64,000 nt of DNA, taken from contig JBBCGO010000001.1 in the NCBI GenBank assembly GCA_037200925.1, positions 383,698 to 447,697 on the forward strand. Direction: 5' to 3'. The stretch comes from Candidatus Doudnabacteria bacterium (GTDB lineage: Bacteria; Patescibacteriota; Doudnabacteria; UBA920; O2-02-FULL-48-8). The notes under the pieces are model-generated. The model ran no database searches. It was not told the origin of the DNA and saw nothing but the letters and a program-made list of their open reading frames with translations. The translations under genes were made by a program, and so were the position numbers. Each line of letters opens with the position of its first letter. The first letter of the stretch is position 1. This document shows positions 28,031 to 51,530 of the stretch, piece after piece.

Positions 28031-28042
28031 AATCCCGTTTGA

Positions 28043-35903: not shown

Positions 35904-35932
35904 ATTATAGCACAGAAAAGAAAAAAAATCAA
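35904..35932 (-). promoter_or_regulatory. Promoter TTGATT-17-TGCTATAAT (minus strand) for the L,D-transpeptidase gene. The upstream terminator of the M15 gene sits at 35928-35950
   Basis: Minus strand: cttgattttttttcttttctgtgctataattat. Hairpin atcaagtacctttagcgcttgat plus T8 immediately upstream. Confidence 0.5.
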
Positions 35933-35973
35933 GTACCTTTAGCGCTTGATTTTATGAGCTAAATAAGACTGGT

Positions 35974-36570
35974 TTAAAAATCAGGCGCGCCGCAAGCTTT
36001 CAGGCCGCTGAGGGTTAGCGGTTTATTATCTTGGGCCAATATATCCATGATCGGGCATGGGAGCGAAAGTGGCGGCGGCCTCATGCCATCTGCAAATTGA
36101 TCCGTCGAAAGGCCTGCTCTATGTTCAAAATGAGGAGGGTCAACCTGTTCAAGCCCGCAGTACGTACCTATCTTTGCAAGTTTATCAAAATCAATATCAT
36201 AACCATTCCACCGGTCGACGACATCAACGGCAAAACCATAGTTGTGAAGGCTTTTCCCCGGCTCAGCCCAGCTGATAATATGTCCGTCGACCGTTCGTCC
36301 CGAATTATAGATGGCCAACTGATCTTCTAAACTACGAAAGCCTGATGTGATCCGTAACGTATAGCCATATGCTGCCGCAACCGGGATAAAACATTCATTG
36401 ATTTGTGTTGAAAAGTTAGGGTCCAGAGCCGTTGGCACAACAATACTCTCTCCTAAAACCATTTTGGCGTGTTTTCCGTTTTGCGAAATGAAAAAAGATC
36501 CGGCGATTATACAGATTAAAAGCAAGGCTGATGCGATAAGATAATAATTTATTTTATCTTCGAGATTCAT
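35974..36570 (-). CDS. Peptidase M15 family D-Ala-D-Ala carboxypeptidase (VanY-like)
   Basis: 198 aa. N-terminal TM. Zn ligand blocks SGFRS...HNYGFAVDV...PPHFEH. Confidence 0.75.
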   Translation of the reverse strand: MNLEDKINYYLIASALLLICIIAGSFFISQNGKHAKMVLGESIVVPTALDPNFSTQINECFIPVAAAYGYTLRITSGFRSLEDQLAIYNSGRTVDGHIISWAEPGKSLHNYGFAVDVVDRWNGYDIDFDKLAKIGTYCGLEQVDPPHFEHRAGLSTDQFADGMRPPPLSLPCPIMDILAQDNKPLTLSGLKACGAPDF

Positions 36571-36585: not shown

Positions 36586-38217
36586 TTAACCGAATGTAAA
36601 CGTGAATGCTTCAAAGCCCGCCGCAGGAATGGTAATTTCTATCGTATGATCAGTATAATCGGCTGAATCAAAAAGCGTATATAGCTCAGAAGCACCGACC
36701 ATCACATCAGGCTGGGTCTTGCCGTCCACCGTAATGCTGATCTTTTGCGGCGTTGGGCTGTCTGCCACAATATGCACTTTGCCGGAATGGAACTTCAGCC
36801 TGATCTTACCGCTGGGTTTTGTCATCGTGATCTTATCGGAGCTGAACTGCCAAGCGCCTGACAAGGCAAAATCATTCAGATCCAAATTACTCGGGAAACT
36901 GTAATTCGTTTCCTTGCTTGAAGGCTGCTGCTGGGAAGTTAAATTAGCAAGCCGGTCAGTTCCGAAATACATTTCCGGCGAGCCGATTCCCGAAAGGTCC
37001 TGGCCCGGCTCATTCAGCGATTCCGTTCCCAGCCCCAGCAGGGTCCGGATGGCGTTTTCCATTTTATCATAATTCCCTTCGCCGAAGTCAAAGTAGACGA
37101 CATTGCCGTTCTGGTCGATCAGATACTCTGCGGGCCAATACTGATTCGAGTAGGCATTCCAAGTCGCCAATTCATTATCCTGTGCCACCGGATAATTTAT
37201 TTTGAACCGCTTGATCGCATCCGCTACATTGGCCGTGTCTTTTTCAAACTCAAACTCCGGCGAATGGACGCCCACGACAACAAACCCTTTGTCTTTATAA
37301 GTGTCATACCATTTGGTGACAAACGGCAGGGTCCGGATGCAGTTGATGCAGCTGTAGGTCCAGAAATCTATCAGCACCACTTTGCCTTTAAGTTCCTTCA
37401 TTGTCAGCGGGTCTGAATTCAGCCAATGGTCAATGCCGGTAAATTCAGGAGACGGCCCGTAATTTTTAATATCAACTGCTGTACCATTTGATCGGTTTGG
37501 ATTATTATTTGGCACGAGCTTGCTTTCCAGTGTTGAGGTCGGGAATATATTGGCAAGCTGATTCTCTATCTGGATATCAAAATTATAATACATGGCCACA
37601 GCCAGAAGAATGATCAATATTCCAAAAATTCTCTGGAGCAGGACCGAGTATTTGGCTATTCCGCGGATCTTCGTGGTCACAGCCTGACTGGCGTAAGCGA
37701 TGATCAGCATCGGTATCCCCGCTCCGATAGCATATGCTGCTAGAAGCACCAAAGATCTGACGAAATTTGCCTGCAGGGCTATCAGGGTCAGTATTGCGCC
37801 CAATACAGGGCCTGCACACGGCGTCCACACAACACCCAGGGTCATTCCGAGTATAAATCCGCCCAGATTGTCACTGCGCAGTTTTCCGGCTTGGCTGGCG
37901 CGATTGATGACGCCATTCAATCGCATAGTCAGAAGTTCAAACGGCTTTGACCAGATCATGAATACGCCGAAAATTCCCAAAAGAACGATCGCCGAGTTGC
38001 GCAAGATGTTCGGATTCAGTCCCAAATGCCTGGTCAGGTAGGACAAAAAAACGCCCAAAACGGCGAATACGATGACGAATCCGGAAACAATATATAACGG
38101 TCTTGTTTTGCTGGTATGGCCTATGGATGTGCCGAGCAGAACCGGGAGCAAAGGCAAAATACAAGGCGCTCCTATCGTCAGAACGCCTGCTAAAATCGCA
38201 AATAATATCTGGATCAT
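36586..38217 (-). CDS. DipZ-like thiol-disulfide oxidoreductase: CcdA/DsbD transmembrane domain plus thioredoxin-fold (CxxC) domain plus C-terminal beta-rich domain
   Basis: 543 aa. 6-8 TM with conserved Cys (GAPCILP, TPCAGP). TlpA-like LIDFWTYSCINCIRTLP. Confidence 0.8.
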   Translation of the reverse strand: MIQILFAILAGVLTIGAPCILPLLPVLLGTSIGHTSKTRPLYIVSGFVIVFAVLGVFLSYLTRHLGLNPNILRNSAIVLLGIFGVFMIWSKPFELLTMRLNGVINRASQAGKLRSDNLGGFILGMTLGVVWTPCAGPVLGAILTLIALQANFVRSLVLLAAYAIGAGIPMLIIAYASQAVTTKIRGIAKYSVLLQRIFGILIILLAVAMYYNFDIQIENQLANIFPTSTLESKLVPNNNPNRSNGTAVDIKNYGPSPEFTGIDHWLNSDPLTMKELKGKVVLIDFWTYSCINCIRTLPFVTKWYDTYKDKGFVVVGVHSPEFEFEKDTANVADAIKRFKINYPVAQDNELATWNAYSNQYWPAEYLIDQNGNVVYFDFGEGNYDKMENAIRTLLGLGTESLNEPGQDLSGIGSPEMYFGTDRLANLTSQQQPSSKETNYSFPSNLDLNDFALSGAWQFSSDKITMTKPSGKIRLKFHSGKVHIVADSPTPQKISITVDGKTQPDVMVGASELYTLFDSADYTDHTIEITIPAAGFEAFTFTFG

Positions 38218-38270: not shown

Positions 38271-39671
38271 TTAAACTTCAAAACTTTCCAGCAGCTTTGG
38301 AATGGTGATCTTGAAATCAGGATGACCTTGCTCCAGAATTTCTTTCAGCGCTTCGGCTTGCGGCAGTTCGGTGTGGACCAAAAATAAATTCTTCAGGCCC
38401 TGGATATTTTTTATATAATCTTTCAAAAAATCCTGATCCCCGTGCGCGCTGAATTCGTTCATGGTAATAACGCGAGCGCGAATATTTAAACTGGAACCCA
38501 AAATTTGTATGGGACTTTCACCGTGATGTATTTTCCGGCCAAGCGTGCCCTCGGCCTGATATCCTGTGATCAAGATCGTATTTTTCGGATCTTCAATATT
38601 GTTCTTCAAATGATGAAGGATGCGGCCGCCTTCCATCATTCCTGAAGAGGATATGATGATGAATGGCCCGGGTCTGGTATTCAAAGCCTTGGATTCTTCC
38701 ACCGTATGAATATACTGCAAATTTTTGAATGCCAGAGGCAGTTCATTTTTGCTGAAAAAATCCTGATCGGTCTCAGCGTCAAAATCTTCTTCGTGCTTGG
38801 CAAAAACTTCGCTGATGTTCAGCGCCAGCGGGCTGTCAACGAATATGGGAATGTCCTGGACGATCTTCCGGTCCGTCAGATCATGCAGAATATACACCAA
38901 TTCCTGCGTCCGGCCCAGAGCGAATGCCGGAATGATGATCTTGCCGCGGTTTTTGATGGCGAAATCTATGACTTCGCGCAGCTGGCCGGCAGCATCAGAC
39001 AAAGGTTTGTGTTTGGTCCCTCCGTAAGTTGCCTCGCTGATCAGAACATCGGAATTTTCCTGTACAGGCTCCGGGTCATGCAGGATCGGCGCTCCCGGCT
39101 GGCCTATATCACCGGTATAAGCCAAACCTCTGATAGTATCGTTCTCCTTGATCTCAAGATAAGTAATTGCGGATCCTAAAATATGGCCCGCGTCGTAAAA
39201 TTTAAACCGGATGCGGTCATTGATCTGGGTCCATTGCCCGGTTAAACGAAAATACGGGACGATCTCAAAATACTGGAAGATATTTTCAGCCTCTTCTTTC
39301 GTGTACATGACGCCGGGACTGGGAATTCCCGGGTGATTCTGAGCGTATTTGGAATCCATGGACTGGACCATGGCGCTGTCGATCAAAATAAATTTGGCGA
39401 TATCTGCCGTGGCACCGGTGCAATAAATTTTTCCTTTGAATCCGTTCTTTACTAGAATGGGCAGCATGCCGCAATGATCCGCATGAGCATGCGATAAAAT
39501 AACGCAGTCAATAGTCTTGGCATCAAAAGGCAAGGTCTGATGTTCCGGATCCCCGCCGGTGTGTTCGCCCTGCTGCAAACCGCAATCCAAAAGTATTCTG
39601 GATCCTTGCGTTTCGAGCAAATGTTTGGAACCGGTGACAGTTTGCGCCGCGCCGTAAAAAGTTATTTTCAT
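38271..39671 (-). CDS. MBL-fold beta-CASP family hydrolase (RNA-metabolising metallo-beta-lactamase)
   Basis: 466 aa. HAHADH motif (ILSHAHADHCG). beta-CASP insert and C-terminal RNA-specificity-type region. Confidence 0.8.
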   Translation of the reverse strand: MKITFYGAAQTVTGSKHLLETQGSRILLDCGLQQGEHTGGDPEHQTLPFDAKTIDCVILSHAHADHCGMLPILVKNGFKGKIYCTGATADIAKFILIDSAMVQSMDSKYAQNHPGIPSPGVMYTKEEAENIFQYFEIVPYFRLTGQWTQINDRIRFKFYDAGHILGSAITYLEIKENDTIRGLAYTGDIGQPGAPILHDPEPVQENSDVLISEATYGGTKHKPLSDAAGQLREVIDFAIKNRGKIIIPAFALGRTQELVYILHDLTDRKIVQDIPIFVDSPLALNISEVFAKHEEDFDAETDQDFFSKNELPLAFKNLQYIHTVEESKALNTRPGPFIIISSSGMMEGGRILHHLKNNIEDPKNTILITGYQAEGTLGRKIHHGESPIQILGSSLNIRARVITMNEFSAHGDQDFLKDYIKNIQGLKNLFLVHTELPQAEALKEILEQGHPDFKITIPKLLESFEV

Positions 39672-39674: not shown

Positions 39675-42600
39675 TTACTCTTTAATGTCCCCTCCCGTAC
39701 TAGGAAAACTGGGTACTTGTCCAGAATTGTTCATTTGAACAATGGGTCCTTGGGGGAGCAGCAGATCCAGGCTGTTGGCAGGGAGCACGTCTTTGAATTG
39801 ATAGCCATAGGAGTAGAAGACTGCTTCAGACGGAAAACCATACCGAAGATCAGTGCCCAGAAGATATACGGTTCCCTGATTAAGAATCAAAGCTCCTACC
39901 GGGTGCCTGATGTTGGAAGAAAGGATGGATTCCCCTTCAGGAATAGCACTCGTGTCTGCTCGTATGACATTGGATAGTTTGTATCCTAGGGCTGTGAATA
40001 CGGCCATAGAGACAAAAGGACGTTTAAAGCCCTGGGACATGACATAGATCACCCCATGGTCCAGCAGAAGAGAGCCGTCTGATGTTAGGGTATTGGAAGC
40101 CTGCTGATTCGTACCTGGTGGTACATATGGGGCACAACAGGTTGGGCCTCCTCCGCCAGAAGGTGGAGGTGGAGGCGGAGGGGGCGGAGTTGAACCACCG
40201 AAATTCCAGTTGATATTGCCTCCCCCATCAATACAATTGGTACAGGTGACCACGGATGTAGCATGAGATGAGGATACGGAGAGATATGATAGAACACTTG
40301 AACCTTGGGAGTCTAGATTCCAGGCAGAGGAACCTGTGGTGAATTTCTGGATGCGGCCGTTGTTGGCATCTGCGACATAAATATTACCGGAGTGGTCCAT
40401 TGTAATACCTAGCGGAACAGCAAACTGGCCATCGCCCGAACCAGGTATCCCGCTCTGACATCCGGAGGTGCAAATTTGAAACGCATTTGTTGTTCCATCT
40501 TGAACACCCCAGCCGAATGTGAGGAGTAAATTACCCGAAGGGTCGAATTTCTCAATGCGGTTGTTTTGGATGTTGGCGACATAAATATTATTTGATGAGT
40601 CAATTGCAATACCTTGGGGATCGATAAACTGTCCATAGCCCCCACCTTCCGAACCAGCCTGGCATCCGGATGTGCAGATCTCAAACTGATCTGCTCCATC
40701 CTGCACTCCCCAGCCGATGGTATACTCAAAGACCGGCTCACCCGTGTTCAGAGAAAATTTCTGGATGCGGCTATTGTCAGAATCTGTGACATAGATATTA
40801 TTGAACGAGTCAATTGCAAGGAATGCTGGCTCATTGAACTGGCCGGCATCCGAACCTCGTATCCCACCCTGGCATCCGGAGGTGCAAATTTGAAACGCAT
40901 TTGTTGTTCCATCTTGAACACCCCAGCCGAAGGTGGAAAGAAAAGCACCGTCAGGGTCAAATTTCTGGATGCGGTTATTGCTAGCATCTACAACATAAAT
41001 GTTGCCCGAAGAGTCAAATACAATTCCTTGAGGATACTCAAATTGCCCATCGCCGGAACCTTCGGTTCCCCATTGAGTTACAAATCCTTCACCGGAATTG
41101 AATACCTCAATACGATGATTACTGCTATCCGTGACATAAATATTATTGGAAGAGTCAATTGCAATACCTCCGGGAACTAAGAATTGGCCGTCACCGCTGC
41201 CGCCAATCCCAGTTTGACAGCCCGATGTGCAGATCTCAAACTGATCTGCTCCAGTTTGTACTCCCCAGCCGAAGGTGGAAAGGAAATTGCCGGAAGGGTC
41301 AAATTTCTGGATGCGGCTATTTCCTTGATCCACGACATAAATATTACCTGAAGAGTCATTTGCAATGCCTATAGGATTATTTAATTCTCCTTCTGGGCTA
41401 CTATTGCCGAACTTTGAGAGAAAATTCTCTGAAGGATCAAATTTCTCGATACGTATGCCGCTGTCCGCAACATAAATATTGCCGGAAGCATCAACCGTAA
41501 CACCTACAGGTAAACTTGTCTGCCCCTCGCCCCCTGGCACATCTGGGTCATCGGCGGGTATCCCAGCCTGGCAGCCGGATGTGCAAATCTGAAATTCTTC
41601 TGTTCCGTCCAGCACTCCCCAGCCGAAAGTAGATTGAAAGGCGCCATTAGAACCAAATACCTGAATGCGACTATTGCCATAATCTGCAACATAAATATTA
41701 TCTGAGGAGTCGGTTGTAATACCGCCGGATGCATTGAATTGTCCGGCACCTGGGCCGGATATCCCGGCCTGACATCCTGACGTGCAGGTTTGGAATGCAT
41801 TTGCACCAGTCTGCACCCCCCAGCCAAAGGTAGATTGAAAGGCGCCCGAAGTATTAAATTTCTGGATACGGCTATTGTCGTTGTCTGCAACATAAATATT
41901 ATCTGAGGAGTCAATGGCTATATAATAAGGATGCTTTAATTGGCCATCGCCTGAGCCAAAACTTCCCCATGCGGAAATAAAGTGGCCGTCGGGACCAAAT
42001 TTCTGGATGCGATTATTGCCGGCATCAGAAATATAGACATTGCCTGAAGAATCGGCCGCAACACTAATACCGCCAGACCCGTCAAATTGGCCGGGACCGG
42101 AGCCTGCTATTCCGGCCTGACAGTTTGAATTACAGACTTGGAATGCAGGTGTTCCATCCAGCACCCCCCAACCAAAGGTTTTAATGAAAGTACCGGCGGA
42201 TGTGAATTCCTGGACGCGATTAGTATCTACTATGTAAATATTATTAGAGGAATCAACTATAATACCGCCGGGCGCATCGAATTGGCCGTCTCCCGTGCCG
42301 AAACTTCCCCATTTGATAATAAAATTGCCGGAAGGATCAAATTTCTGGATGCGGTTATTGTTAACATCTACGGCGTAAATATTTCCTGAGGAGTCATGCG
42401 CAATGCCTGTGATCTGGCTAAAATTTCCATCAACGGTATTGCTTCCTATACCAAACTTCGAAGCAAACACAGGCTGACCGGTGCCGGGTGCATGGTTCAA
42501 AGTCAGTAATCCCGTAGAAACACCAGTCAGAGTAAGTGTGCCTGTGACAGTTGTAGTATTAGCAGGGTCAAAGGATAAGGTGTCTGCAATGGTTGTGATC

Positions 42601-45600
42601 TTGGTTAAGTTATAGAAAGTATTGGAACCAAGTATGGTTTGGTTGGTTCCTGTGAGGATAACTGTGGAGGTATCGGCATGCAATTCGCCGTTATTGGTAA
42701 GGTTCCCTGAGATATTGAATGTGTTTGTACCCAGATGTAAGGCGCCCCCATCTGAGATGGTGATATCATCGATGGATTGATCATTGGTTAATGTAACTTC
42801 ATTATTTATCGTGGCGGAATCCAGATAAGTTGGATAATCAATACCCGCGATCCCGGGAGAAGTATTGCCCCAGGTAGCCCCATCATTCCAATTGCCGTCT
42901 TGTACAGAAGTAAAAGAAGAAGGAACCAATACGGTTACAAAGTTCCAGTTGATGTTCCCTCCTTCATCAGTACAATTGGTACAAGTGACGGCAGATGCCG
43001 AGTGAGATGAAGATACGGAAAGATATGATAGTGCGCTGGATCCTGAAGAGTTTAGATTCCAGGTATCGGCAGAGGTGGTGAATTTTTGGGTGTAAACATA
43101 AATATTATTTAATGGGTCAACCGCTATGATCCCAGGTTCTGAGAACTGGCCATCACCCGCGAAACCATTTATTCCACCCTGACATCCGGAGAAACAAGTC
43201 TCAAAATGATTTGCTCCATCCAGCACGCCCCAGCCGAATGTGAGAAGGAAATGGCCTGCTGGGTCAAGTTTCTGGATACGGCTGCTTTGACTGTCGCTGA
43301 CATAAAGGTTGCCCGATGAGTCGATGGCAATACCTTGAGGACCATTAAGCTCACCATCACCCATACCGGCTATTCCAGCCTGGCAATTGGATGTACAAGA
43401 CTCCCACATATTTGCGCCAGTTTGTACTCCCCAGCCGAAAGTGGAGAGAAACGTGCCCGAGGAATCAAATTTCTGGATGCGATTATTGAAATTATCCGGG
43501 ACATAAACATTATTAGAAGAATCAACCGCTACACTGTTAAGCCCGCTAAACTCACTTTCGCTTGTGCCGGGACTTCCCCATTTGGTAACGAAGTTGCCGG
43601 AAGGGCCGAATTTCTCGATGCGGGTATTCCCGTTATCTGCAACATAAAGATTGCCGAATGAGTCGAAGACCATAGCCTGAGAATTATTAAATTGGCCATC
43701 GCCTGAACCAACTATTCCACCCTGGCATCCGGAGGTACAGATCTCAAATTGATTTGCTCCATCCTGCACTCCCCAGCCGAAAGTGGAAAGGAAATGACCT
43801 CCCGAGTCAAATTTTTCAATACGGCTGTTTAGATTTCCGGCATCACTAACGTATATGTTACCCAGGGTGTCGGTTGTAATACCCTGAGGAAGATTGAATT
43901 GCCCGTCACCCGAACCTGCTAAGCCAACCTGACATCCGGAGGTACAGATCTCAAATTGATTTGCTCCATCCTGCACTCCCCAGCCAAAGGTAAAGAGGAA
44001 ATGGCCTGACGGATCAAATTTCTGGATGCGGTCACTGAAACTGTCTGCAACATAAAAATTTCCTGAAGCGTCGGCTCTTATGCCTCCGGCTTGATTTATT
44101 ACGCCTTCCGCTTGGTTATCGCCGAATATTGAGAGGAAATTACCCGAAGGATCAAATATCTTGACTCTGTAATTGTTCGAGTCCGTGACGTAAACTTTGC
44201 CGGAAGAGTCGGTTGAAATACCTGCGGGGGAAAAAACAAAAAAACTGTCACCGGAGGGAGGACTTTCCCACTCGGTGAAAAAACTGCCGTCAGAGTGAAA
44301 TTTCTCTATGCGGGCATTATTACCGGCCCAATCAGCAACATAAATATCGCCCGCTTGATCAACTGTAATAACCTGGGGATTAGAAAACTGGTCCAGACCA
44401 TCTCCTGTAATTCCAGCCAGGCAAGGCGTTGTTAAGTTTGTACAGATCTCAAAATGATTTGCTCCATCCTGTACTCCCCATCCGAAGGTGGACAGGAAAG
44501 TGCCGGCCGAATCAAATTTCTCAACTCGATAGTTGCCGTTATCGATTACGTAGAGATCATCTGATGAATCAATGGCGATGCCTAAGGGCTGATTAAACTC
44601 GCCATCGCCAGAGCCAATACTTCCCCACTGGGAAATGTAATTACCCGCAGAGTCAAATTTCTGGATACGATTATTGTTAGTATCTGTCACATAAAGAAAG
44701 TCGTCAGATGAGTCGATGGTAATGCCTGAAGGCTGATTAAACTCGCCATCGCCAGAGCCAATACTTCCCCACTGGGAAATGTAATTACCGGAAGAATCGA
44801 ATTTTTCGATACGATTATTGCCACTATCTACAACGTAGACATCAGAAGCGTCAGCAGTAGTTGTAATACCGGTAACACTATCAAACTGCCCATTGTCTGT
44901 GCCACCACCTCCCCATCTCGTAATGAAGTTGCCTGAGTGGTCAAGTTTCTGGATGTAATTATTGGAGTCATCCGCCACGTAGAAGTTACCCAAAGAATCG
45001 GTGGCAATGGCAGTCGGCGACTGAAAATTTCCACCAACCGAAAATGTATCAATCCCGATCCTGGAATCAAAAACAGGGCCATTGCTGGGTGAATGATTAA
45101 CAGTCAGCAGTCCCGTAGAAACTCCGGTAAGGGTCAGTGTGCCTGTGACGGTAGTAGTATTAGCCGGATCAAAGGAAAGAGTGTCTGCAACAGTTGTGAT
45201 TTTGGTTAAGTTATAAAAGTTATTATTTCCCAGTATTGTCTGGTTGCTGCCTGTAAGGATAACATGGGAAGTGCCGGCATTCAGGGTGCCGTTATTAGTA
45301 AAGTTCCCGGAGACAGAGAAAACGCGTGTTCCCAGATCTAAAGTGCCGCCATCTGAGATAGTGATATCGTGGACGGATCGGTCTTGTGTTAGTGTTACGT
45401 TGTTTTCTATAGTCGCATCATCTGTCGGACCTGGAAAATCAACCCCAATGACTCCGGGAGAGGTATTGCCCCAGGTAGCTCCGTCATTCCAGTTCCCGTC
45501 CTGCGCGGAGGTGAAAGAGGAGGCAAAAGCTTTATGGGGAGCCAGAATAGCCAAAGCAAAAAAAACCGCCAGCAAAAAAGGCATTGCTGGAAAAAATTTC

Positions 45601-45626
45601 AATCGTGTTTTTGTTTCAGGCCCCAT
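39675..45626 (-). CDS. Giant secreted NHL-repeat (multi-beta-propeller) protein with poly-Pro hinge and conserved C-terminal domain
   Basis: 1983 aa. Signal peptide. More than 40 NHL-type blades (recurring ..YV.D..N.RIQKFD..G.F...FG..G...G.F..P.GIA.D..). Cys-containing TSGCQ insertions. PPPPPPPPPSGGGGPTCCAPY then an approximately 230-aa C-terminal domain. Confidence 0.85.
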   Translation of the reverse strand: MGPETKTRLKFFPAMPFLLAVFFALAILAPHKAFASSFTSAQDGNWNDGATWGNTSPGVIGVDFPGPTDDATIENNVTLTQDRSVHDITISDGGTLDLGTRVFSVSGNFTNNGTLNAGTSHVILTGSNQTILGNNNFYNLTKITTVADTLSFDPANTTTVTGTLTLTGVSTGLLTVNHSPSNGPVFDSRIGIDTFSVGGNFQSPTAIATDSLGNFYVADDSNNYIQKLDHSGNFITRWGGGGTDNGQFDSVTGITTTADASDVYVVDSGNNRIEKFDSSGNYISQWGSIGSGDGEFNQPSGITIDSSDDFLYVTDTNNNRIQKFDSAGNYISQWGSIGSGDGEFNQPLGIAIDSSDDLYVIDNGNYRVEKFDSAGTFLSTFGWGVQDGANHFEICTNLTTPCLAGITGDGLDQFSNPQVITVDQAGDIYVADWAGNNARIEKFHSDGSFFTEWESPPSGDSFFVFSPAGISTDSSGKVYVTDSNNYRVKIFDPSGNFLSIFGDNQAEGVINQAGGIRADASGNFYVADSFSDRIQKFDPSGHFLFTFGWGVQDGANQFEICTSGCQVGLAGSGDGQFNLPQGITTDTLGNIYVSDAGNLNSRIEKFDSGGHFLSTFGWGVQDGANQFEICTSGCQGGIVGSGDGQFNNSQAMVFDSFGNLYVADNGNTRIEKFGPSGNFVTKWGSPGTSESEFSGLNSVAVDSSNNVYVPDNFNNRIQKFDSSGTFLSTFGWGVQTGANMWESCTSNCQAGIAGMGDGELNGPQGIAIDSSGNLYVSDSQSSRIQKLDPAGHFLLTFGWGVLDGANHFETCFSGCQGGINGFAGDGQFSEPGIIAVDPLNNIYVYTQKFTTSADTWNLNSSGSSALSYLSVSSSHSASAVTCTNCTDEGGNINWNFVTVLVPSSFTSVQDGNWNDGATWGNTSPGIAGIDYPTYLDSATINNEVTLTNDQSIDDITISDGGALHLGTNTFNISGNLTNNGELHADTSTVILTGTNQTILGSNTFYNLTKITTIADTLSFDPANTTTVTGTLTLTGVSTGLLTLNHAPGTGQPVFASKFGIGSNTVDGNFSQITGIAHDSSGNIYAVDVNNNRIQKFDPSGNFIIKWGSFGTGDGQFDAPGGIIVDSSNNIYIVDTNRVQEFTSAGTFIKTFGWGVLDGTPAFQVCNSNCQAGIAGSGPGQFDGSGGISVAADSSGNVYISDAGNNRIQKFGPDGHFISAWGSFGSGDGQLKHPYYIAIDSSDNIYVADNDNSRIQKFNTSGAFQSTFGWGVQTGANAFQTCTSGCQAGISGPGAGQFNASGGITTDSSDNIYVADYGNSRIQVFGSNGAFQSTFGWGVLDGTEEFQICTSGCQAGIPADDPDVPGGEGQTSLPVGVTVDASGNIYVADSGIRIEKFDPSENFLSKFGNSSPEGELNNPIGIANDSSGNIYVVDQGNSRIQKFDPSGNFLSTFGWGVQTGADQFEICTSGCQTGIGGSGDGQFLVPGGIAIDSSNNIYVTDSSNHRIEVFNSGEGFVTQWGTEGSGDGQFEYPQGIVFDSSGNIYVVDASNNRIQKFDPDGAFLSTFGWGVQDGTTNAFQICTSGCQGGIRGSDAGQFNEPAFLAIDSFNNIYVTDSDNSRIQKFSLNTGEPVFEYTIGWGVQDGADQFEICTSGCQAGSEGGGYGQFIDPQGIAIDSSNNIYVANIQNNRIEKFDPSGNLLLTFGWGVQDGTTNAFQICTSGCQSGIPGSGDGQFAVPLGITMDHSGNIYVADANNGRIQKFTTGSSAWNLDSQGSSVLSYLSVSSSHATSVVTCTNCIDGGGNINWNFGGSTPPPPPPPPPSGGGGPTCCAPYVPPGTNQQASNTLTSDGSLLLDHGVIYVMSQGFKRPFVSMAVFTALGYKLSNVIRADTSAIPEGESILSSNIRHPVGALILNQGTVYLLGTDLRYGFPSEAVFYSYGYQFKDVLPANSLDLLLPQGPIVQMNNSGQVPSFPSTGGDIKE

Positions 45627-45663
45627 AATAATTTAAGATGTGATCTATTAAAACTTCTTTGTT

Positions 45664-48600
45664 TTAGTTAGCGGGTCCCCCTCCCGTACTAGGAAAACTG
45701 GGTACTTGTCCAGAATTGTTCATTTGAACAATGGGTCCTTGGGGGAGCAGCAGATCCAGGCTGTTGGCAGGGAGCACGTCTTTGAATTGATAGCCATAGG
45801 AGTAGAAGACTACTTCAGACGGAAAACCGTACCGAAGATCAGTGCCCAGAAGATATACGGTTCCCTGATTAAGAATCAAAGCTCCTACCGGGTGCCTGAT
45901 GTTGGAAGAAAGGATGGATTCCCCTTCAGGAATAGCACTCGTGTCTGCTCGTATGACATTGGATAGTTTGTATCCTAGGGCTGTGAATACGGCCATAGAG
46001 ACAAAAGGACGTTTAAAGCCCTGGGACATGACATAGATCACCCCATGGTCCAGCAGAAGAGAGCCGTCTGATGTTAGGGTATTGGAAGCCTGCTGATTCG
46101 TACCTGGTGGTACATATGGGGCACAACAGGTTGGGCCTCCTCCGCCAGAAGGTGGAGGTGGAGGCGGAGGGGGCGGAGTTGAACCACCGAAATTCCAGTT
46201 GATATTGCCTCCCCCATCAATACAATTGGTGCAGGTGACCACGGATGTAGCATGAGATGAGGATACGGAGAGATATGATAGTACGCTTGAACCTTGGGAG
46301 TCTAGGGTCCAGGCAGAGGAACCTGTGGTGAATTTCTGAATGCGGCCGTTCCGAGTATCTGCAACATAGATACTACCGGAAGAGTCTATAGCAATACCGG
46401 AAATAAAGCTAAACTCTACATCGCCAGGGCCCCCGCTTCCCCATTGGGTAATGAAATTGCCTGAAGGATCAAATTTCTGGACGCGATTATTGTCTGCATC
46501 CGTAACATAGATATTACCGGAAGAGTCTATTGCAATGCCTTGCGGATTAGCAAGTTGGCCGTCATCTGAACCATATATCCCGGCCTGACAAGGTGTCGTT
46601 AGTTCTGTGCAAATTTCAAATTGATTTGCTCCATCCTGCACTCCCCAGCCGAAAGTGGAGAGGAAATTGCCATCAGAATCGAATTTCTCGATGCGGTTAT
46701 TGTCTATATCTGTGACATAAATATTACCGGAAGAGTCTGTTGCAATGCCTTGAAATGACTCAGAAGGTATGCTAAATTGTCCTTCACCTGAGCCGGGACT
46801 TCCCCACTGGAGAAGCAAATTGCCGGAAGGATCAAATTTTTCGACGCGATTATTTAGGGAATCTGCAACATAGATATTATCAGAAGAGTCAATTGCGATT
46901 CCTTGAGGTGAGTTGAACTGCCCGTCTCCTGAGCCGGGACTTCCCCACGAGGTAATCGTGTAGGAATTGCCGTTCGGGTGAAATTTCTGGATGCGATTAT
47001 TGTCGGTTTCTACAACATAGAGATTGTTTGATGAATCAAAAGCAAGACCTGTTGGACCGCTAAATTCCCCGTTGCCGGAACCTGGAATCCCGACATGACA
47101 GTTTAGTGTACAAATTTGAAACATATTTGCTCCATCCTGCACTCCCCAGCCAAAAGTGAGAAGAAAATTGCCTCCCGAGTCAAATTTCTGGATGCGGTTA
47201 TTAAAACTATCAGTGATGTAGATGTTGCCCGAGGCATCGAATGCAACATCACTGGGATAACCCAATGCTTTCTCCGGCGCCTTATTTACAAATTTCGAAA
47301 TGAAATTACCCGAAAAATCAAATTTCTGGATACCATTCTTTCCGTCATCCGAGACGTAGACAAAAGATGAGTCAGATGAAATAGTTACAGGACCCTGAAA
47401 TGCGCCTTCCTCTCCCGAATCAAGTCCGGCCCGACAAGGTATTGTTAATTCTGTGCAAACTTCAAATTGATTTGCTCCATCCTGCACTCCCCAGCCGAAT
47501 GTGAGCAGAAAACCACCAGCAGGGTTGAATTTCTGAACGCGATCATTAAAATAATCTGTGACATAAATGTCATTTGAAGAATCGGCATTAATTCCAGTAG
47601 GTCCTCCAAACTCGCTATCACCTGAACCATTACTTCCCCACTTGCCAAGAAAATTGCCTGCGGAATCAAATTTCTGGATGCGGTGATTGAAGTAATCGGC
47701 GACATAAATATTATTTAAATGGTCAACCGCAATGCCTTGAGGAAAATTAAATTCGTTGTCGGCAGTACCAAAAGTACCCCACTCGCTTTGAAAATTACCA
47801 GATGAATCAAATTTCTGGATGCGATTATTGCCGGAATCGGCGACATAGACATTACCGGAAGAGTCGGTTGCAATGCCTTGATATGTCTGATCAGGCATTT
47901 CAAACTGTCCGGGGCCGGAACCCTCGCTTCCCCACTGGGTAATATAATTGCCTGCCGAGTCAAATTTCTGGATGCGATTATTGCCGGAGTCGGCGACATA
48001 AATATTATTTAAATAGTCAACGGCAATGCCTTGAGGAAAATTAAATTCGCCGTCGCCTGAACCAAGCAACCCGGCATAACAACCGGTTAAAGTAGTGCAT
48101 GTTTGCAATTCAGGCGTCGTCCCATCTTGCACTCCCCAGCCGAATGCAAACAGAAAATTGTGGTTCGGATCAAATTTTTCAATGCGGTTATTCCAGCGAT
48201 CTAAGACGTACATATTATCGGAAGAGTCATTCGCAATAATTACGGGTGAATTGAGATTTCCTCCAAGTGAGAATACGTCTCTCCCGATATTTGAATCAAA
48301 GACAGGTTGACCCGCGCCTGGCGAATTGTTCACAGTCAGCAGTCCCGTAGAAACACCGGTAAGAGTAAGTGTGCCTGTGAGAGTGGTCGTATTGGCCGGG
48401 TCAAAGGAGAGAGTATCTGCAGTATTTGTGATTTTGGTTAAGTTATGGAAAGTATTAGGTCCAAGTATGGTTTGATTTGTGCCGTTGAGAACAACGGTAG
48501 AAGTTTGGGCGTTTAAAATGCCGTTATTGTTAAAGTTCCCTGAAACGAAGAAGGTGTTTGCTCCCAGATCTAAAGTGCCGCTGCCGGATATAGTGATATC

Positions 48601-51459
48601 ATGGACGGATTGATCTTGGGTCTGTGCTACTTCGTTTTCAATCGTTGCATCATCAATTGAGTTCGGATAATCAACACCGGCAGCTCCTGGTGATAGAAAA
48701 CCCCAGGTCGCTCCGTCATTCCAGTTGCCGTCTTGTACTGAGGTAAAAGATGCAGAGACATTTGGAATGAAAGTTGAACATACTGTAGTGACACCCGTCA
48801 CAACACCATATCCGGGAAAATTACTTGCACCTGGTGCGAAACAGGCATTACCATTGACGGTGCCGTAGTTGATGCTTGTACCCTTAAAGCTGGCATTACC
48901 GACGACAGAAGGATCCATAGTATAAAAATTTCCACTTGCATCATTGAAGGTGGGATTGCCGGTAACACTGCCTAAATTTTCACTTAAACCATTGAAAACG
49001 GGGTTGCCGTTGATAAATCCGTCGTTAGTGCTTGAATCATTGAAAATGGTATCGCCATTGATGGTGCCAAGGCTGAAGGCTGAATCATTGAAAGTAACAT
49101 CACCGGTGATAGTGGTACTATCATTGCGGCTTGTATCATTGAAGATAAACTGAGTGATCAGATTACCGCTCACATCTTGGGCTCTGCCGTTGACTCTTCC
49201 CCAAGTTTGACTGCCCGAAAGAGTGATTGCCCCGCCTGAAGCAGAAGTGAAAGTGGCATCTCCGGATACTAAACTCGGATTGTAACTGGAATCATTGAAC
49301 ACGGCATTCCCCGTAACAGTGCCGCTGTTGGTGCTTGAACCATTGAAAATGGTGTCGCCGGTAACAGTGCCTTGATTGTAGCTTGAATCATAGAAAATAG
49401 GATTGTTGGAGATAGTCGCAAAGTTCGCACTTTGATCCCTGAAGATAAACTGAGTGATCAGATTACCGCTCACATCTAGAGCCCTGCCATTAACTATTCC
49501 CCAAACTTGTTGACCGGTGAGAGTAACCAGACCGCCTGAAGCATAGGTGAACGTAGCATCGCCGGTCACGGTGCCTGCATTAGAGCTTGTATCATTGAAA
49601 ATAGGATTGCCGATTATATCAGTGTTGTTGGCGCTTGTATCATTAAAAACAGGATTGCCGGTAATAGTGCCGCTGTTTTGGCTTGTATCATTAAAAACAG
49701 GATTGCCGGAGATATCGGCGGAGTTGACGCTCGTATCGTTGAAAGTGGCAACGCCGGTGACAGTGCCGTTGTTGGAGCTGTTGTTGTTGAAAGTGGCATC
49801 GCCGGTGACAGTGCCGTTGTTCGTAAAGTCCCCTGATGACGAAAGAGTGTGTGCTGCGAGATTTAAAGTGCTGCCGGCAGAGACAGTGATGTCTTGGATG
49901 GATTGGTCTTGTGTCAGCGTCACTGTGTTTTCGACGGTCGCATTATCTGTGGGACCTGGAAAATCAGCACCGGCAACTCCGGGAGAGGTATTGCCCCAGG
50001 TCGCTCCGTCATTCCAATTGCCGTCTTGCACGGAAGTAAAAGATGTGGCAACTGGACTTATGATTTTCTGAATTGCTGCAGCAACATAACCGGCTAAAAT
50101 TCCGTATCCGGCATCGGTTGGATGAATGCCATCGTGATAATACGTTGTATCTGAATCTTCCCCGGGCTGACCCATCACGCTGCTCGATGCAATATCTGAA
50201 AGGCCGTCTGCAAAGCTCGGCCAATTAGCCCGAAGCAAGCTGTTAACAGTTTGTCTGTCTGCTTCGAACGTAGGGAGCGTAGGTTCGGTCCTGGGGAGTA
50301 TTGTATTTACAATTACTTTAAAACCGACCGCTCTCCTGGCCTGCGCGTACGAAACAATACGATTGTACGTTGTGATTGCATCTGCTCCAAAATGCAAATC
50401 ATTAGTCCCGCCCATCAGAGTCACAATATTAGTTGTATCCGCACCCAGAAATTCAGGATCAATTTGAGCAGGCGCATCGTTGATCATATCAAGTAGCGTT
50501 CGCGAAGATCCGCCCATATTTTGATAAGTTGGCCCAGGACCAAGAATGGCTTGCACCTGACTTGGATAATCTTGTCCCGTACTTGCCAGGTAACCCTGAG
50601 TTATGGAATCGCCGTCGAAAATAAGAAGAGGATTTGAGGGTATTGAAGCTATTCCATATTTGGCCATCAGGTAAGATTCAATTTGTCCGATCTGTACCCT
50701 AGATAGCGCACTGTTGTAAATAATAATTTCAGCTATATCGCCATGTAAATTATAACCGCCGCCGGAAATGGAACCGATCGTTAAGGCACCGCTCAAGCCT
50801 AAATTACCTGATGCCACACCGGGTTTTTCAGAACCGTTAAAGCGCAGCCGGGCATGCGTGCCATCATACGAGAAAGTTTCAATTGTGGGATCCGATATCA
50901 GGGCAGATCCCGGTGATGGCATGGCGACTTGTGTACGCGGCGCTGTAAGATTACCCGTCTGTGCCAAAATGGCGTTAGCACTATTACTGATACCGCCGCT
51001 GAACCAGGCAGCTCCCTGATTACTTGTGGTAAGCTCTAAATCTTCATCTGTTTTGGTCTGTACGATAAAAAACGTAAAACTCGTATCGAATGAAGAATCA
51101 AGAAATGAAGACGTATCCATATTTTGCGCCCCATTGAATCTAAGAACCGGATGACTATTTATAATATTAGTTTTATACGTGGGTCTGCTGCCTGCCGTTA
51201 ACTGTGTTGCGTTGTTTGCTCCTAAAGAACGGTCATTCCATTGTTGGACAGTGTCCCCATCAATTGCAGGGGTCGTGCCGTCTTTGGTAACTCCATTGGA
51301 TGCATCCATCCAAAGTTTAAGCCCGGAGATCTGATCAGGGGTAACCGCAAGAGCTTTATGCGGAGCCAGAATGGCCAAAGCAAAGAAAACCGCCAGCAAA
51401 AAAGGCATTGCTGGAAGAAATTTCAATGCTATTGAAATTAACTTATTATTTCCGGTCAA
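45664..51459 (-). CDS. Giant secreted multidomain protein: LamG-like, SGNH/GDSL hydrolase, Asn-rich beta-helix-like repeats, NHL-repeat propellers, then the same poly-Pro and C-terminal domain
   Basis: 1931 aa. GDSITQG...GGTNDL...DGIHPT (SGNH blocks I/III/V). About 11-aa periodic GNPVFNDTS.N.GT.TG repeats. More than 30 NHL blades. The last roughly 215 aa are about 98% identical at the nucleotide level to 39675..40330. Confidence 0.85.
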   Translation of the reverse strand: MTGNNKLISIALKFLPAMPFLLAVFFALAILAPHKALAVTPDQISGLKLWMDASNGVTKDGTTPAIDGDTVQQWNDRSLGANNATQLTAGSRPTYKTNIINSHPVLRFNGAQNMDTSSFLDSSFDTSFTFFIVQTKTDEDLELTTSNQGAAWFSGGISNSANAILAQTGNLTAPRTQVAMPSPGSALISDPTIETFSYDGTHARLRFNGSEKPGVASGNLGLSGALTIGSISGGGYNLHGDIAEIIIYNSALSRVQIGQIESYLMAKYGIASIPSNPLLIFDGDSITQGYLASTGQDYPSQVQAILGPGPTYQNMGGSSRTLLDMINDAPAQIDPEFLGADTTNIVTLMGGTNDLHFGADAITTYNRIVSYAQARRAVGFKVIVNTILPRTEPTLPTFEADRQTVNSLLRANWPSFADGLSDIASSSVMGQPGEDSDTTYYHDGIHPTDAGYGILAGYVAAAIQKIISPVATSFTSVQDGNWNDGATWGNTSPGVAGADFPGPTDNATVENTVTLTQDQSIQDITVSAGSTLNLAAHTLSSSGDFTNNGTVTGDATFNNNSSNNGTVTGVATFNDTSVNSADISGNPVFNDTSQNSGTITGNPVFNDTSANNTDIIGNPIFNDTSSNAGTVTGDATFTYASGGLVTLTGQQVWGIVNGRALDVSGNLITQFIFRDQSANFATISNNPIFYDSSYNQGTVTGDTIFNGSSTNSGTVTGNAVFNDSSYNPSLVSGDATFTSASGGAITLSGSQTWGRVNGRAQDVSGNLITQFIFNDTSRNDSTTITGDVTFNDSAFSLGTINGDTIFNDSSTNDGFINGNPVFNGLSENLGSVTGNPTFNDASGNFYTMDPSVVGNASFKGTSINYGTVNGNACFAPGASNFPGYGVVTGVTTVCSTFIPNVSASFTSVQDGNWNDGATWGFLSPGAAGVDYPNSIDDATIENEVAQTQDQSVHDITISGSGTLDLGANTFFVSGNFNNNGILNAQTSTVVLNGTNQTILGPNTFHNLTKITNTADTLSFDPANTTTLTGTLTLTGVSTGLLTVNNSPGAGQPVFDSNIGRDVFSLGGNLNSPVIIANDSSDNMYVLDRWNNRIEKFDPNHNFLFAFGWGVQDGTTPELQTCTTLTGCYAGLLGSGDGEFNFPQGIAVDYLNNIYVADSGNNRIQKFDSAGNYITQWGSEGSGPGQFEMPDQTYQGIATDSSGNVYVADSGNNRIQKFDSSGNFQSEWGTFGTADNEFNFPQGIAVDHLNNIYVADYFNHRIQKFDSAGNFLGKWGSNGSGDSEFGGPTGINADSSNDIYVTDYFNDRVQKFNPAGGFLLTFGWGVQDGANQFEVCTELTIPCRAGLDSGEEGAFQGPVTISSDSSFVYVSDDGKNGIQKFDFSGNFISKFVNKAPEKALGYPSDVAFDASGNIYITDSFNNRIQKFDSGGNFLLTFGWGVQDGANMFQICTLNCHVGIPGSGNGEFSGPTGLAFDSSNNLYVVETDNNRIQKFHPNGNSYTITSWGSPGSGDGQFNSPQGIAIDSSDNIYVADSLNNRVEKFDPSGNLLLQWGSPGSGEGQFSIPSESFQGIATDSSGNIYVTDIDNNRIEKFDSDGNFLSTFGWGVQDGANQFEICTELTTPCQAGIYGSDDGQLANPQGIAIDSSGNIYVTDADNNRVQKFDPSGNFITQWGSGGPGDVEFSFISGIAIDSSGSIYVADTRNGRIQKFTTGSSAWTLDSQGSSVLSYLSVSSSHATSVVTCTNCIDGGGNINWNFGGSTPPPPPPPPPSGGGGPTCCAPYVPPGTNQQASNTLTSDGSLLLDHGVIYVMSQGFKRPFVSMAVFTALGYKLSNVIRADTSAIPEGESILSSNIRHPVGALILNQGTVYLLGTDLRYGFPSEVVFYSYGYQFKDVLPANSLDLLLPQGPIVQMNNSGQVPSFPSTGGGPAN

Positions 51460-51501: not shown

Positions 51502-51530
51502 ATTATAGCACATGGAAGAAAAAAAAGCAA
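51502..51530 (-). promoter_or_regulatory. Promoter TTGCTT-17-TGCTATAAT (minus strand) upstream of the giant-gene pair
   Basis: Minus: tcttgcttttttttcttccatgtgctataattat. Paralogous to the element at 35904-35932. Only 37 bp separate the two giant genes, so they are probably co-transcribed from here. Confidence 0.5.

Follow-up and report, generated by a model that had tools for sequence, protein, structure and literature searches.

Two adjacent NHL-propeller genes in a Candidatus Doudnabacteria contig predicted to encode modular surface proteins with putative wall-binding repeats

In the window, the whole 64,000-nucleotide stretch of DNA analysed here, two very long genes, A and B, lie side by side on one strand. 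The locus raises the question of what kind of protein these genes encode, how such proteins might be held on the cell and what they might contact there. The favoured reading, held with a little better than even confidence, is that A and B encode paralogous, Sec-exported, modular cell-surface proteins. These would be wall-tethered propeller platforms, to which A adds an SGNH tip.

The gene pair and its probable transcription unit

The genes, their export signals and their immediate surroundings are as follows.

45664..51459, minus strand: gene A, 1931 aa, TTG start, uninterrupted ORF
39675..45626, minus strand: gene B, 1983 aa, ATG start, uninterrupted ORF
51346..51459, minus strand: A residues 1-38, predicted Sec-type signal peptide (rule-based reading)
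45522..45626, minus strand: B residues 1-35, predicted signal peptide, KAFA followed by SS (rule-based reading)
51502..51530, minus strand: candidate promoter of the unit, TTGCTT-N17-TGcTATAAT with an extended -10, read from the sequence
38271..39671, minus strand: gene for a beta-CASP metallo-beta-lactamase-fold protein, starting 3 bp past the B stop

The earlier note described two co-oriented, adjacent ORFs of about 1950 aa with a 37-bp gap, each with a signal peptide, in an organism with a small genome, and it placed a promoter at 51502-51530. This description stands. Both ORFs are intact, the DNA comes from a Candidatus Doudnabacteria contig of 964 kb, and the promoter site reads TTGCTT, a 17-nt spacer and TGcTATAAT. 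NCBI begins both proteins at internal ATG codons, which gives 1914 aa for A (start at 51408; MEJ0021442.1) and 1969 aa for B (MEJ0021441.1).

A and B each contain a single hydrophobic segment, at the N-terminus, with an AxA site after it. In A, the rule-based reading gives a K-containing n-region, a hydrophobic core and KALA followed by VT. No hydrophobic segment besides the signal peptide is present in either protein, so neither is transmembrane-anchored, and the LPXTG motif is absent from both, so neither is sortase-anchored. Both proteins are acidic (175-193 D+E versus 70-71 K+R), with a high content of Gly, Ser, Thr and Asn. Outside their ends, they share approximately 60% protein identity and have different architectures. 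Rfam and tRNA scans of the window gave no matches.

A and B are likely co-transcribed, because the gap between them is 37 bp, no terminator-like site was found in it and an extended -10 promoter lies upstream. The -35 hexamer of this promoter matches at three of six positions, and for this reason it was overlooked by a consensus scan. The upstream gene has a terminator-like hairpin at 51577-51563. The transcription unit probably also includes the beta-CASP gene, for which a functional link to A and B is not evident. A check of synteny in related metagenome bins had also been proposed. In a metagenome scan with the beta-CASP gene, none of the 80 loci recovered (47-58% identity) has NHL, anchor-repeat or DipZ neighbours. 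There is thus no conserved synteny among these loci, and synteny at such distance is uninformative.

Domain architecture of A and B

From the N-terminus to the C-terminus, the domains of A and then of B are as follows.

50635..51345, minus strand: A residues 39-275, ConA/LamG-like module, borderline (Laminin_G_3)
50065..50622, minus strand: A residues 280-465, SGNH/GDSL hydrolase (Pfam, PDB sequence alignment)
49825..50052, minus strand: A residues 470-545, first copy of the start of the "cap" (SFTSVQDGNWNDGATWG...), running into the 16-aa repeats
48760..49824, minus strand: A residues 546-900, approximately 22 Asn/Thr/Ser-rich 16-aa repeats (autocorrelation, Tandem Repeats Finder)
48322..48759, minus strand: A residues 901-1046, cap, predicted N-terminal part of a beta-solenoid-like host domain (AlphaFold2, hhalign)
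46330..48321, minus strand: A residues 1047-1710, 12 NHL blades, predicted to form two six-bladed propellers (Pfam, motif count, AlphaFold2)
46189..46329, minus strand: A residues 1711-1757, tail TTGSSAW...GGGNINWNF, predicted C-terminal part of the host domain (hhalign, BLASTP)
46075..46188, minus strand: A residues 1758-1795, Pro9/Gly-rich linker with a CC pair
45718..46074, minus strand: A residues 1796-1914, two repeats of ~58 aa of EccB/PlyCB type, putative wall-binding anchor
42939..45521, minus strand: B residues 36-896, unit 1 (cap 36-178, 12 NHL blades 179-849, tail 850-896)
40200..42926, minus strand: B residues 901-1809, unit 2 (cap 901-1046, 12 NHL blades 1047-1762, tail 1763-1809)
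39729..40199, minus strand: B residues 1810-1966, Pro9 linker and two EccB/PlyCB-type repeats

The earlier note read the pair as secreted NHL scaffolds with mosaic additions, having dozens of NHL blades with Cys-containing insertions in both proteins and a complete SGNH/GDSL catalytic set in A. The NHL and SGNH matches and the signal peptides bear this out. The Pfam NHL family (PF01436) matches A at E 3.6e-85 and B at 9e-144. By motif count there are 12 blades in A and 24 in B, which corresponds to two and four six-bladed propellers; the last of the 12 blades in unit 1 of B is truncated. Sixteen blades carry a Cys-pair loop of the form GWGVQDG..C..C (4 in A and 12 in B), and every Cys in the two proteins has a close partner Cys.

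AlphaFold models had been suggested for counting the propellers. The AlphaFold2 run covered A residues 566-1765, and residues 1050-1710, with 12 blades, have a pLDDT mostly above 85. In this model, six blades close into one propeller. In Foldseek searches, a single A propeller matches the NHL domains of TRIM71 and TRIM2 (275 aa) with a TMt of 0.87-0.90. The tandem-propeller protein LRP6 aligns with the A propellers over ~690 columns with a low TM-score. The B propellers, at 58-61% identity, are expected to have the same fold. Matches to "Pizza" PDB entries were rejected; they reflect a trivial P-x-G-x-x-V-D-x-x-G-T-V-Y hairpin resemblance, and no stretch passes alone.

Sequence profiles indicate that every array of 12 blades is an insertion nested in a beta-solenoid-like host domain and interrupts it. 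When the cap and tail are joined and compared with a contiguous family in hhalign, the probability is 98.8% (E 4e-17) and the alignment spans the splice point. The A tail alone has a BLASTP E value of 1e-14. The A cap is modelled with a pLDDT of 82-88 as triplets of short strands that recur every ~20 residues. The nested topology is read from sequence profiles only, because AlphaFold2 modelled the tail with low confidence and gave no usable structure. Neither this topology nor the C-terminal wall-binding-type repeats were mentioned in the earlier note.

The N-terminal extension of A begins with the LamG-like module. Its Laminin_G_3 (PF13385) score is 27.1 bits against a cut-off of 27.6, with only the C-terminal half of the profile covered. 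Five of ten homologous modules match Laminin_G_3, all weakly, and a PDB sequence search with the A module gave nothing meaningful. The A module is 63% identical to the N-terminus of a 969-aa LamG-like/SGNH/fn3 protein from a Pirellulales MAG.

The SGNH domain scores 63 bits against Lipase_GDSL_2 (PF13472; cut-off 32.9). Blocks I, II, III and V are present as GDSITQG (283), MGGS (315), GGTNDL (350) and DGIHPT (443). These supply the catalytic Ser (GDS, 283-285), Gly (MGGS), Asn (GGTND) and Asp-x-x-His (DGIHP). The blocks align with those of solved GDSL proteins in sequence matches (PDB 4ppy, 4iyj, 4hf7 and 9hi5), including the GNS/GTND/DGVHP of 9hi5 and its designed variants (9hi4/9hi6). By sequence, the domain is an active-site-complete predicted esterase. 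Assignment to AxeA1 (NCBIfam) was rejected at 21 bits against a cut-off of 700. In the genome-contig scan, the LamG-like/SGNH cassette is the sole match in other phyla, and no related gene pair was found.

The Asn-rich tract of A has a consensus of roughly GNPVFNDTSxNxGTVT and is closed by a Cys873-Cys894 pair. It had been described as an 11-residue periodic tract typical of beta-helix stalks; the actual period is 16. The autocorrelation peaks at lag 16 (0.346, against 0.106 at lag 11), and Tandem Repeats Finder gives a period of 48 bp. A 16-residue period might resemble that of ice-nucleation or antifreeze solenoids. No ice-nucleation or antifreeze family in Pfam matches A, even at E<=10, and a PDB sequence search with the tract gave no match. 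The AlphaFold2 model provides no information here on a beta-helix or any other fold (pLDDT ~27; 25-45 over tract and tail). The sole Pfam match is Bflower_2 (37.1 against a cut-off of 38), a family that describes a hairpin-repeat barrel and not a solenoid (PMC10584680).

Proposed wall anchoring, proposed role and alternatives

In structural models, the ~58-aa repeats that close A and B have an EccB/PlyCB-type fold, a small beta-sheet plus a helix like repeats R1-R4 of EccB. After EccB, their fold neighbours are endolysin cell-wall-binding domains and PlyCB. A and B have no match to PF05108 in Pfam, and PDB sequence searches with the repeats gave nothing meaningful; one family member, P0140, matches PF05108 with 39.3 bits against 27. 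An exhaustive search gives 3,831 cluster representatives. The repeat is C-terminal in 109 of the 152 proteins examined, usually in four copies, and its carriers include subtilases, Ig/fn3 stalks and a NAGPA glycosidase. Two more secreted proteins within the window carry it. The members with a named source are all from Doudnabacteria and are all annotated "hypothetical protein". When ten members were scanned against Pfam, most had no match over the repeat region. No paper connecting CPR bacteria with EccB-type repeats or NHL proteins turned up in literature searches. The Pro9 run was considered as a site of slip-strand phase variation, and this was rejected, because the Pro codons are mixed and the run is therefore not a slippage tract.

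In the sister proteins P0022, P0084, P0057, P0129 and P0004, the same cap-NHL-tail-linker core is followed by PG_binding_1. Because of this swap and the distribution of the module, the repeats are regarded as putative wall binders, and A and B are probably tethered to the cell wall by them. A generic retention module of this kind is part of the explanation that, taken whole, is given slightly more credence than not.

The mechanism inferred from these features, including wall binding, orientation on the cell, esterase substrate, attachment role and co-transcription, would be the following. After export, the two C-terminal repeats would hold A and B on peptidoglycan or a wall polymer, most likely that of the producer cell. 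The Pro9/Gly linker would act as a spacer, and the rest of each protein would project outward as one (A) or two (B) host domains, each with a nested pair of NHL propellers. The propellers would act as ligand-binding platforms, many of their blades stiffened by the short disulfide loops. A would extend further, via the ~22 16-residue repeats, to a distal LamG-like module and SGNH esterase. Whatever surface the propellers contact, be it a host cell envelope or a polymer of plant or fungal origin in deadwood, this tip could bind a glycan or lipid there and remove its O-acyl groups. The proteins may plausibly serve in attachment to a host or substrate. Epibiotic growth of the sole genetically tractable CPR bacterium depends on several adhesins and envelope proteins whose domains bind or degrade polysaccharides (PMC10633639).

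It is equally conceivable that the anchor recognises a host's wall and not that of the producer. In the fuller form of this alternative, a minor possibility, the repeats are endolysin-type binders of the host wall, and A and B serve as proteins for grappling or attack that are set free or only loosely retained. The SGNH domain would then de-O-acetylate host peptidoglycan or wall glycans for access. The endolysin-type and PlyCB neighbours of the repeat would fit this role, as would the SGNH fold, since SGNH esterases include glycan O-acetylesterases. The host dependence of CPR bacteria is also in its favour (PMC10633639). However, the module occurs on many unrelated secreted proteins of this genome and lineage (subtilases, Ig-repeat stalks, a NAGPA glycosidase), a distribution typical of self-retention modules. 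The PG_binding_1 domain at the same position in the sister proteins and the lack of a muralytic domain in A or B also argue against it.

It is unlikely that A and B are structural, S-layer-like coat proteins with no specific ligand, whose propeller arrays would build a protective, hydrated outer layer. Such a coat would account for the acidic Gly/Ser/Thr/Asn-rich composition, the wall-binding-type module and the rigid repeat architecture. It would, however, have little use for an SGNH active site or a lectin-like module. The mosaic, lineage-specific architecture, for which no conserved orthologue was found, and the presence of two diverged paralogues instead of one dominant coat gene are also not what a coat would have.

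Because Pfam SGL, Vgb_lyase, Arylesterase and Phytase-like and NCBIfam ScyF also match, the propellers might instead be enzymes of the lactonase, lyase or strictosidine-synthase kind, which would make A and B multi-catalytic extracellular enzymes and not adhesins. This is quite unlikely. All of these models are from the six-bladed propeller clan that also includes NHL, and their matches are far weaker than that of NHL; repetition of 6-14 stretches inflates the whole-protein scores. Vgb_lyase scores 42.2 in A and 50.1 in B against a cut-off of 50.

The near-identical ends of the two genes, reported earlier as 98% identical, are present with identities that differ between the ends. At the 3' ends, 721 bp are shared at 96.9%, including a core of ~640 bp with four mismatches (99.4%), within which the linker and repeats of B fall. 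At the 5' ends, 81 bp are shared at 93.8%. Along the pair, identity jumps abruptly from ~50-70% to 99.4%, which suggests that gene conversion has kept the ends alike. The pair would have arisen by tandem duplication, with the unit of B duplicated again internally, and conversion would hold the leader and anchor ends near-identical. The ~640-bp block could mislead a short-read assembler into a mis-joined or collapsed repeat, but an artefact is very improbable given a 964-kb contig from a PacBio HiFi co-assembly (PMC11613949), two intact ORFs that differ widely outside their ends and a GC content that shows no break.

Within the favoured reading of A and B as wall-tethered surface proteins, the pair makes up 1.2% of a ~1 Mb genome, and A and B are therefore plausible candidates for host or substrate recognition by CPR/Patescibacteria in Doudnabacteria. 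Of wider use is the C-terminal EccB/PlyCB-type repeat, which marks many secreted proteins of the lineage. If it binds the wall, it would give a simple sequence tag with which to predict the surface proteome of CPR bacteria, and it informs the unproven idea that EccB contacts peptidoglycan. In other respects, A and B add one more case of domains shuffled on an NHL scaffold that is very common.

A bolder extension, with a small chance of being right, is that the anchor repeat is a general wall-targeting module of Doudnabacteria and related CPR bacteria, with A and B as its largest cargo, host-reaching fibres with an O-acyl-stripping tip. Disulfide-stiffened propeller fibres would then reach from the epibiont wall to the host cell. 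The distal lectin-like and SGNH tip would strip host O-acyl groups and so establish or feed attachment. Converted ends and diverged middles would vary the binding surface and keep export and anchoring constant.

Comparison with known systems

The earlier note did not recognise the architecture as a described family. This is overstated, since NCBI already names both proteins "6-bladed beta-propeller" and at E<=1e-10 there are more than 2,431 matching multi-NHL proteins. Several proteins that are unnamed or generically named in their sources share the cap-NHL-tail core. P0022, P0084, P0057 and P0129 have, like A and B, the cap (…DGNWNDGATWG…), ~12 NHL blades, the GWGVQDG..C..C loops, the tail (…GGNTNW.F) and a Pro/Gly linker with a wall-binding module. 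Their C-terminal module is PG_binding_1; in A and B this place is taken by EccB-type repeats. They are also shorter (744-1484 aa versus ~1950 aa) and lack the LamG-like/SGNH/16-aa-repeat extension of A. The tandem paralogue arrangement is not present at the two loci inspected, although smaller NHL genes adjoin each other at L091.

Repeats R1-R4 of EccB from mycobacterial type VII secretion (PDB 3x3m, 4kk7, 5cyu and 7nps) and the A/B anchor are both tandem, extramembrane units of ~55-58 aa with a sheet and a helix. Unlike EccB, A and B have no EccB core domain, transmembrane helix or T7SS genes, and each is a secreted protein that carries its two copies of the repeat at the C-terminus. For EccB itself, wall binding is likewise hypothetical (PMC4769845).

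The SGNH domain of A shares all four catalytic blocks with SGNH acylhydrolases (Bacteroides "putative acylhydrolase", 4ppy/4iyj/4hf7). Unlike the solved SGNH/GDSL proteins, it is fused to a propeller scaffold of ~1,450 aa. The LamG-like and SGNH pair is 63% and 49% identical to the protein encoded at 9917-12826 of the Pirellulales locus L002.

The NHL domains of TRIM71, TRIM2, Brat and teneurin share the six-bladed propeller fold (TMt 0.87-0.90 for TRIM71 and TRIM2). The eukaryotic domains are single propellers, intracellular and RNA- or protein-binding or part of the teneurin ectodomain, and they lack the disulfide loops and the nesting seen in A and B.

ScyF (NF035926) is likewise an NHL propeller protein, and the whole-protein scores of A (386) and B (763) exceed its cut-off of 350. 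The assignment was rejected; each score is the sum of 6-14 partial matches, and the match is a false equivalog because it is driven by these repeated stretches. ScyF is a single propeller of ~376 aa with PEP-CTERM, encoded in a scytonemin gene cluster. A and B, in contrast, have no PEP-CTERM or C-terminal hydrophobic segment, no scytonemin genes, no cyanobacterial context and unrelated neighbours. Taken together, A and B combine domains in an unusual way and belong to a common class of modular surface proteins of bacteria.

The gene pair and its neighbourhood

The giant secreted NHL proteins A and B are encoded by uninterrupted ORFs on the minus strand, 37 bp apart, which agrees with the tandem, co-oriented pair first described.

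45664-51459, minus strand: A, uninterrupted ORF, 1931 aa from TTG
39675-45626, minus strand: B, uninterrupted ORF, 1983 aa from ATG
39729-40370 (B) and 45718-46360 (A), approximate, minus strand: near-identical 3' blocks found by DNA comparison

Both products are named 'MAG: 6-bladed beta-propeller [Candidatus Doudnabacteria bacterium]' by NCBI, which places both starts at an internal Met, that of 'MPFLLAVFF'. Here the longer versions are preferred because they gain a Lys/Arg-containing n-region; no other result is affected. An identical ORF B product is found in one NCBI record, on contig JBBCBH010000057.1 (964,444 bp) of assembly GCA_037975565.1. JBBCBH is a deadwood metagenome, co-assembled from PacBio HiFi reads (PMC11613949). 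This record places the organism in the CPR/Patescibacteria and its genome size at about 1 Mb, in line with the small genome assumed in the earlier note. GC across A and B is 0.44-0.48, the same as in the flanks. The window contains no tRNA genes or Rfam matches.

The two proteins are about 60% identical over their shared unit. In the DNA, identity rises abruptly, from about 50-70% to 99.4%, in the final ~640 bp (4 mismatches). This block spans the segment C-terminal to the NHL array (tail), the linker and the C-terminal repeats (putative anchor), and ends about 12 codons ahead of the stop codons, where divergence resumes. In the leader region identity is 94%, and the likeness continues upstream of the start codons. 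Near-identical ends and diverged middles fit a tandem duplication followed by gene conversion at both ends. Assembly collapse is implausible because A and B have different middles, by sequence as well as by architecture, and because HiFi reads underlie the contig.

Upstream of A, a terminator-like hairpin (51577-51563) is followed just downstream by a candidate extended -10 promoter, recognised by sequence (51502-51530, minus strand; TTGCTT-N17-TGcTATAAT). No terminator-like site was found in the 37-bp gap, and the next gene starts 3 bp past the B stop. Given this promoter and spacing, A, B and the beta-CASP gene are likely to share a single transcript. The downstream stretch, 27137-31594 and 34659-36570, is rich in cell-envelope functions.

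38271-39671, minus strand: beta-CASP metallo-beta-lactamase-fold gene
36586-38217, minus strand: DipZ/DsbD-type membrane thiol-disulfide transporter that contains thioredoxin domains; second gene downstream of B
27137-31594 and 34659-36570, minus strand: three glycosyltransferases and a methyltransferase; a YkuD L,D-transpeptidase-fn3 fusion; a VanY-type D-Ala-D-Ala carboxypeptidase

Around beta-CASP homologues (47-58% identity) in 80 metagenome loci there is no synteny and there are no NHL neighbours, and no closer relative was found among species-representative genomes.

Propellers, host domain and additional modules

The dozens of NHL-type blades reported from the sequence are supported by Pfam NHL matches (E 3.6e-85 in A, 9e-144 in B). 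By motif, A has 12 blades and B has 23 and one truncated, making 24 in two arrays of 12. In an AlphaFold2 model of A residues 566-1765 (47-sequence alignment), pLDDT is mostly >85 in the NHL region. In Foldseek, the propellers match single six-bladed NHL domains (TRIM71, TRIM2) with TMt 0.87-0.90, and an alignment of about 690 columns, with a low TM-score, is obtained to tandem-propeller LRP6 structures. On this model and these matches, A contains two six-bladed propellers and, by homology, B contains four.

Each array is bounded by an N-terminal cap (SFTSVQDGNWNDGATWG…LTLTGVSTGLLTVN) and a tail (…SSAWTLDSQGSS…GGGNINWNF). Cap and tail form one contiguous domain in the 248-aa proteins P0014-P0019, which make up one family. 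Once the propellers are removed, the joined cap and tail sequence aligns through the junction without a break (BLASTP E 1e-14; hhalign probability 98.8%, E 4e-17, 144 columns). This alignment indicates that the 12-blade arrays are insertions in a loop of the host domain. The tail is modelled at low confidence and the nesting is based on sequence evidence only. The cap is modelled with pLDDT 82-88 and has short-strand triplets about every 20 residues, consistent with a three-sided solenoid. The metagenomic P0014-P0019 proteins (~248 aa) offer a view of the host domain without propeller insertion. In these, the uninterrupted cap and tail precede a hydrophobic C-terminal segment and a basic tail (…VPLLGPVAL…SGQRWL.R), an end that resembles a sorting signal.

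The complete SGNH/GDSL catalytic set attributed to A holds. The Lipase_GDSL_2 match reaches 63 bits (cut-off 32.9), and GDS(283), GGTND(350) and DGIHP(443) align block for block with the solved GDSL proteins 4ppy, 4iyj, 4hf7 and 9hi5, making the hydrolase assignment solid. The LamG-like module is borderline: its Laminin_G_3 score, 27.1, is just under the 27.6 cut-off, and 5/10 homologous modules also match weakly. The LamG-like and SGNH modules together behave as a cassette that recurs in other proteins. In a Pirellulales MAG, a 969-aa protein (L002, CAWIRC010000001.1, 9917-12826) has a LamG-like module and an SGNH domain, 63% and 49% identical to those of A, followed by fn3, and Bacteroidales giant proteins have several LamG-like copies. 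The 969-aa protein adjoins an integrase, a reverse-transcriptase-like ORF and a prepilin-type protein. Together, this protein and its neighbours suggest that the cassette moves between phyla.

The Asn-rich tract of A (residues 546-900) is real, with a period of 16 residues, not the 11 first proposed. The autocorrelation peaks at lag 16 (0.346, compared with 0.106 at lag 11), and Tandem Repeats Finder gives a 48-bp period. AlphaFold2 pLDDT is about 27, and no PDB sequence relative was found. The sole profile match, just under cut-off, is to the beta-flower family PF21785, a hairpin-repeat barrel and not a solenoid (PMC10584680). A partial cap copy precedes the tract, and cap rungs and tract repeats look alike (…VSGNFNNNGIL… vs …SSGDFTNNGTVTG…). 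For these reasons an amplified solenoid coil is the preferred, unproven reading.

Export and the putative EccB/PlyCB-type anchor

Both proteins have a single hydrophobic segment, N-terminal and followed by an AxA site, as expected from the signal peptides noted earlier. Inspection of both sequences revealed no LPXTG motif or C-terminal hydrophobic tail. The Cys-containing insertions correspond to GWGVQDG...C(x3-6)C in 16 blades (4 in A, 12 in B). Roughly one in four of the 120 best NHL homologues has this loop too, which makes it a recurrent blade variant. Close pairs, 22 in the two proteins combined, take in 14/14 Cys of A and 30/30 Cys of B, the pattern expected of extracytoplasmic disulfides. 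It is conceivable that the DipZ/DsbD-type protein forms or isomerises these loops.

The C-termini consist of a Pro9/Gly linker and two ~58-aa repeats. Only four relatives came up in a word-indexed search; with an exhaustive profile search the number is 3,831 cluster representatives at E<=0.001, of them 1,788 at E<=1e-10. In the 152 proteins examined, four copies are present in 84 and three in 43, and the repeats are C-terminal in 109. Partner domains are typical extracellular ones (subtilase, CarboxypepD_reg, fn3, bacterial Ig). All source-named members are 'hypothetical protein' of Candidatus Doudnabacteria. The anchor model (AlphaFold2, 36 sequences) has a mean pLDDT of 84, with a core >95, and a strand-strand-strand-helix-strand topology, twice. 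The first eleven Foldseek matches are all EccB1, EccB3 or EccB5 (probability 0.54-0.99, at least 0.85 in the first ten), and one family member (P0140) exceeds the Pfam EccB cut-off. EccB1 repeats have been likened to the wall-binding protein PlyCB, with a clear caution from the authors that EccB is not proven to bind peptidoglycan (PMC4769845).

In architecture, P0022, P0084, P0057, P0129 and the fragment P0004 come closest to A and B: they share the cap-NHL-tail-linker core and end with PG_binding_1 instead of the EccB-type anchor. The repeat also occurs on two further secreted proteins of the window.

22906-24501, minus strand: secreted NAGPA-domain (phosphodiester-glycosidase) protein, 531 aa, four EccB-type copies followed by NAGPA
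56103-58739, minus strand: secreted 878-aa 'hypothetical protein WDN47_02570', about seven Asn/Ser-rich ~95-aa repeats and two C-terminal EccB-type copies

Both observations support a retention role for the anchor, and the repeat looks like a general retention tag of the organism's secreted proteins. It is also possible that the anchor targets the host wall. The repeat family, which lacks annotation, is the most useful by-product of the analysis.

Proposed role and comparison with other NHL proteins

The best-supported reading is that A and B would be wall-tethered binding scaffolds projecting outward, with a distal esterase in addition in A. A structural coat is possible, as are catalytic propellers. 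A and B could plausibly serve in attaching the CPR bacterium to deadwood polymers or a host cell. Epibiotic growth of Southlakia requires adhesins and envelope proteins that contain polysaccharide-binding or -degrading domains (PMC10633639).

The ScyF 'equivalog' score (NCBIfam NF035926; 386 bits in A and 763 in B, cut-off 350) is produced by summing over propeller repeats, an artefact that exemplifies repeat-driven false naming. The view that this is not a described family goes too far, given the NCBI name '6-bladed beta-propeller' and the 2,431 proteins that match one cap-NHL-tail unit at E<=1e-10 among 8,000 candidates scored. These are mostly 700-1,500 aa, with add-ons that include PG_binding_1, SLH, PKD, fn3, cadherin-like and Big domains. 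This makes large secreted multi-NHL mosaics a common and mostly uncharacterised class. On an ENA contig (L091, 4986-10235), P0057, a cap-NHL-tail-PG_binding_1 protein, directly follows a 252-aa NHL gene near a 655-aa NHL/Ig protein, so NHL surface-gene clusters occur elsewhere too. Particular to A and B are their size (two and four propellers), their tandem, gene-converted pairing, the EccB-type anchor where relatives have PG_binding_1, and the nested propeller arrangement, the last of these also found in some other metagenomic proteins; particular to A is the extension of LamG-like module, SGNH domain and 16-aa repeats.
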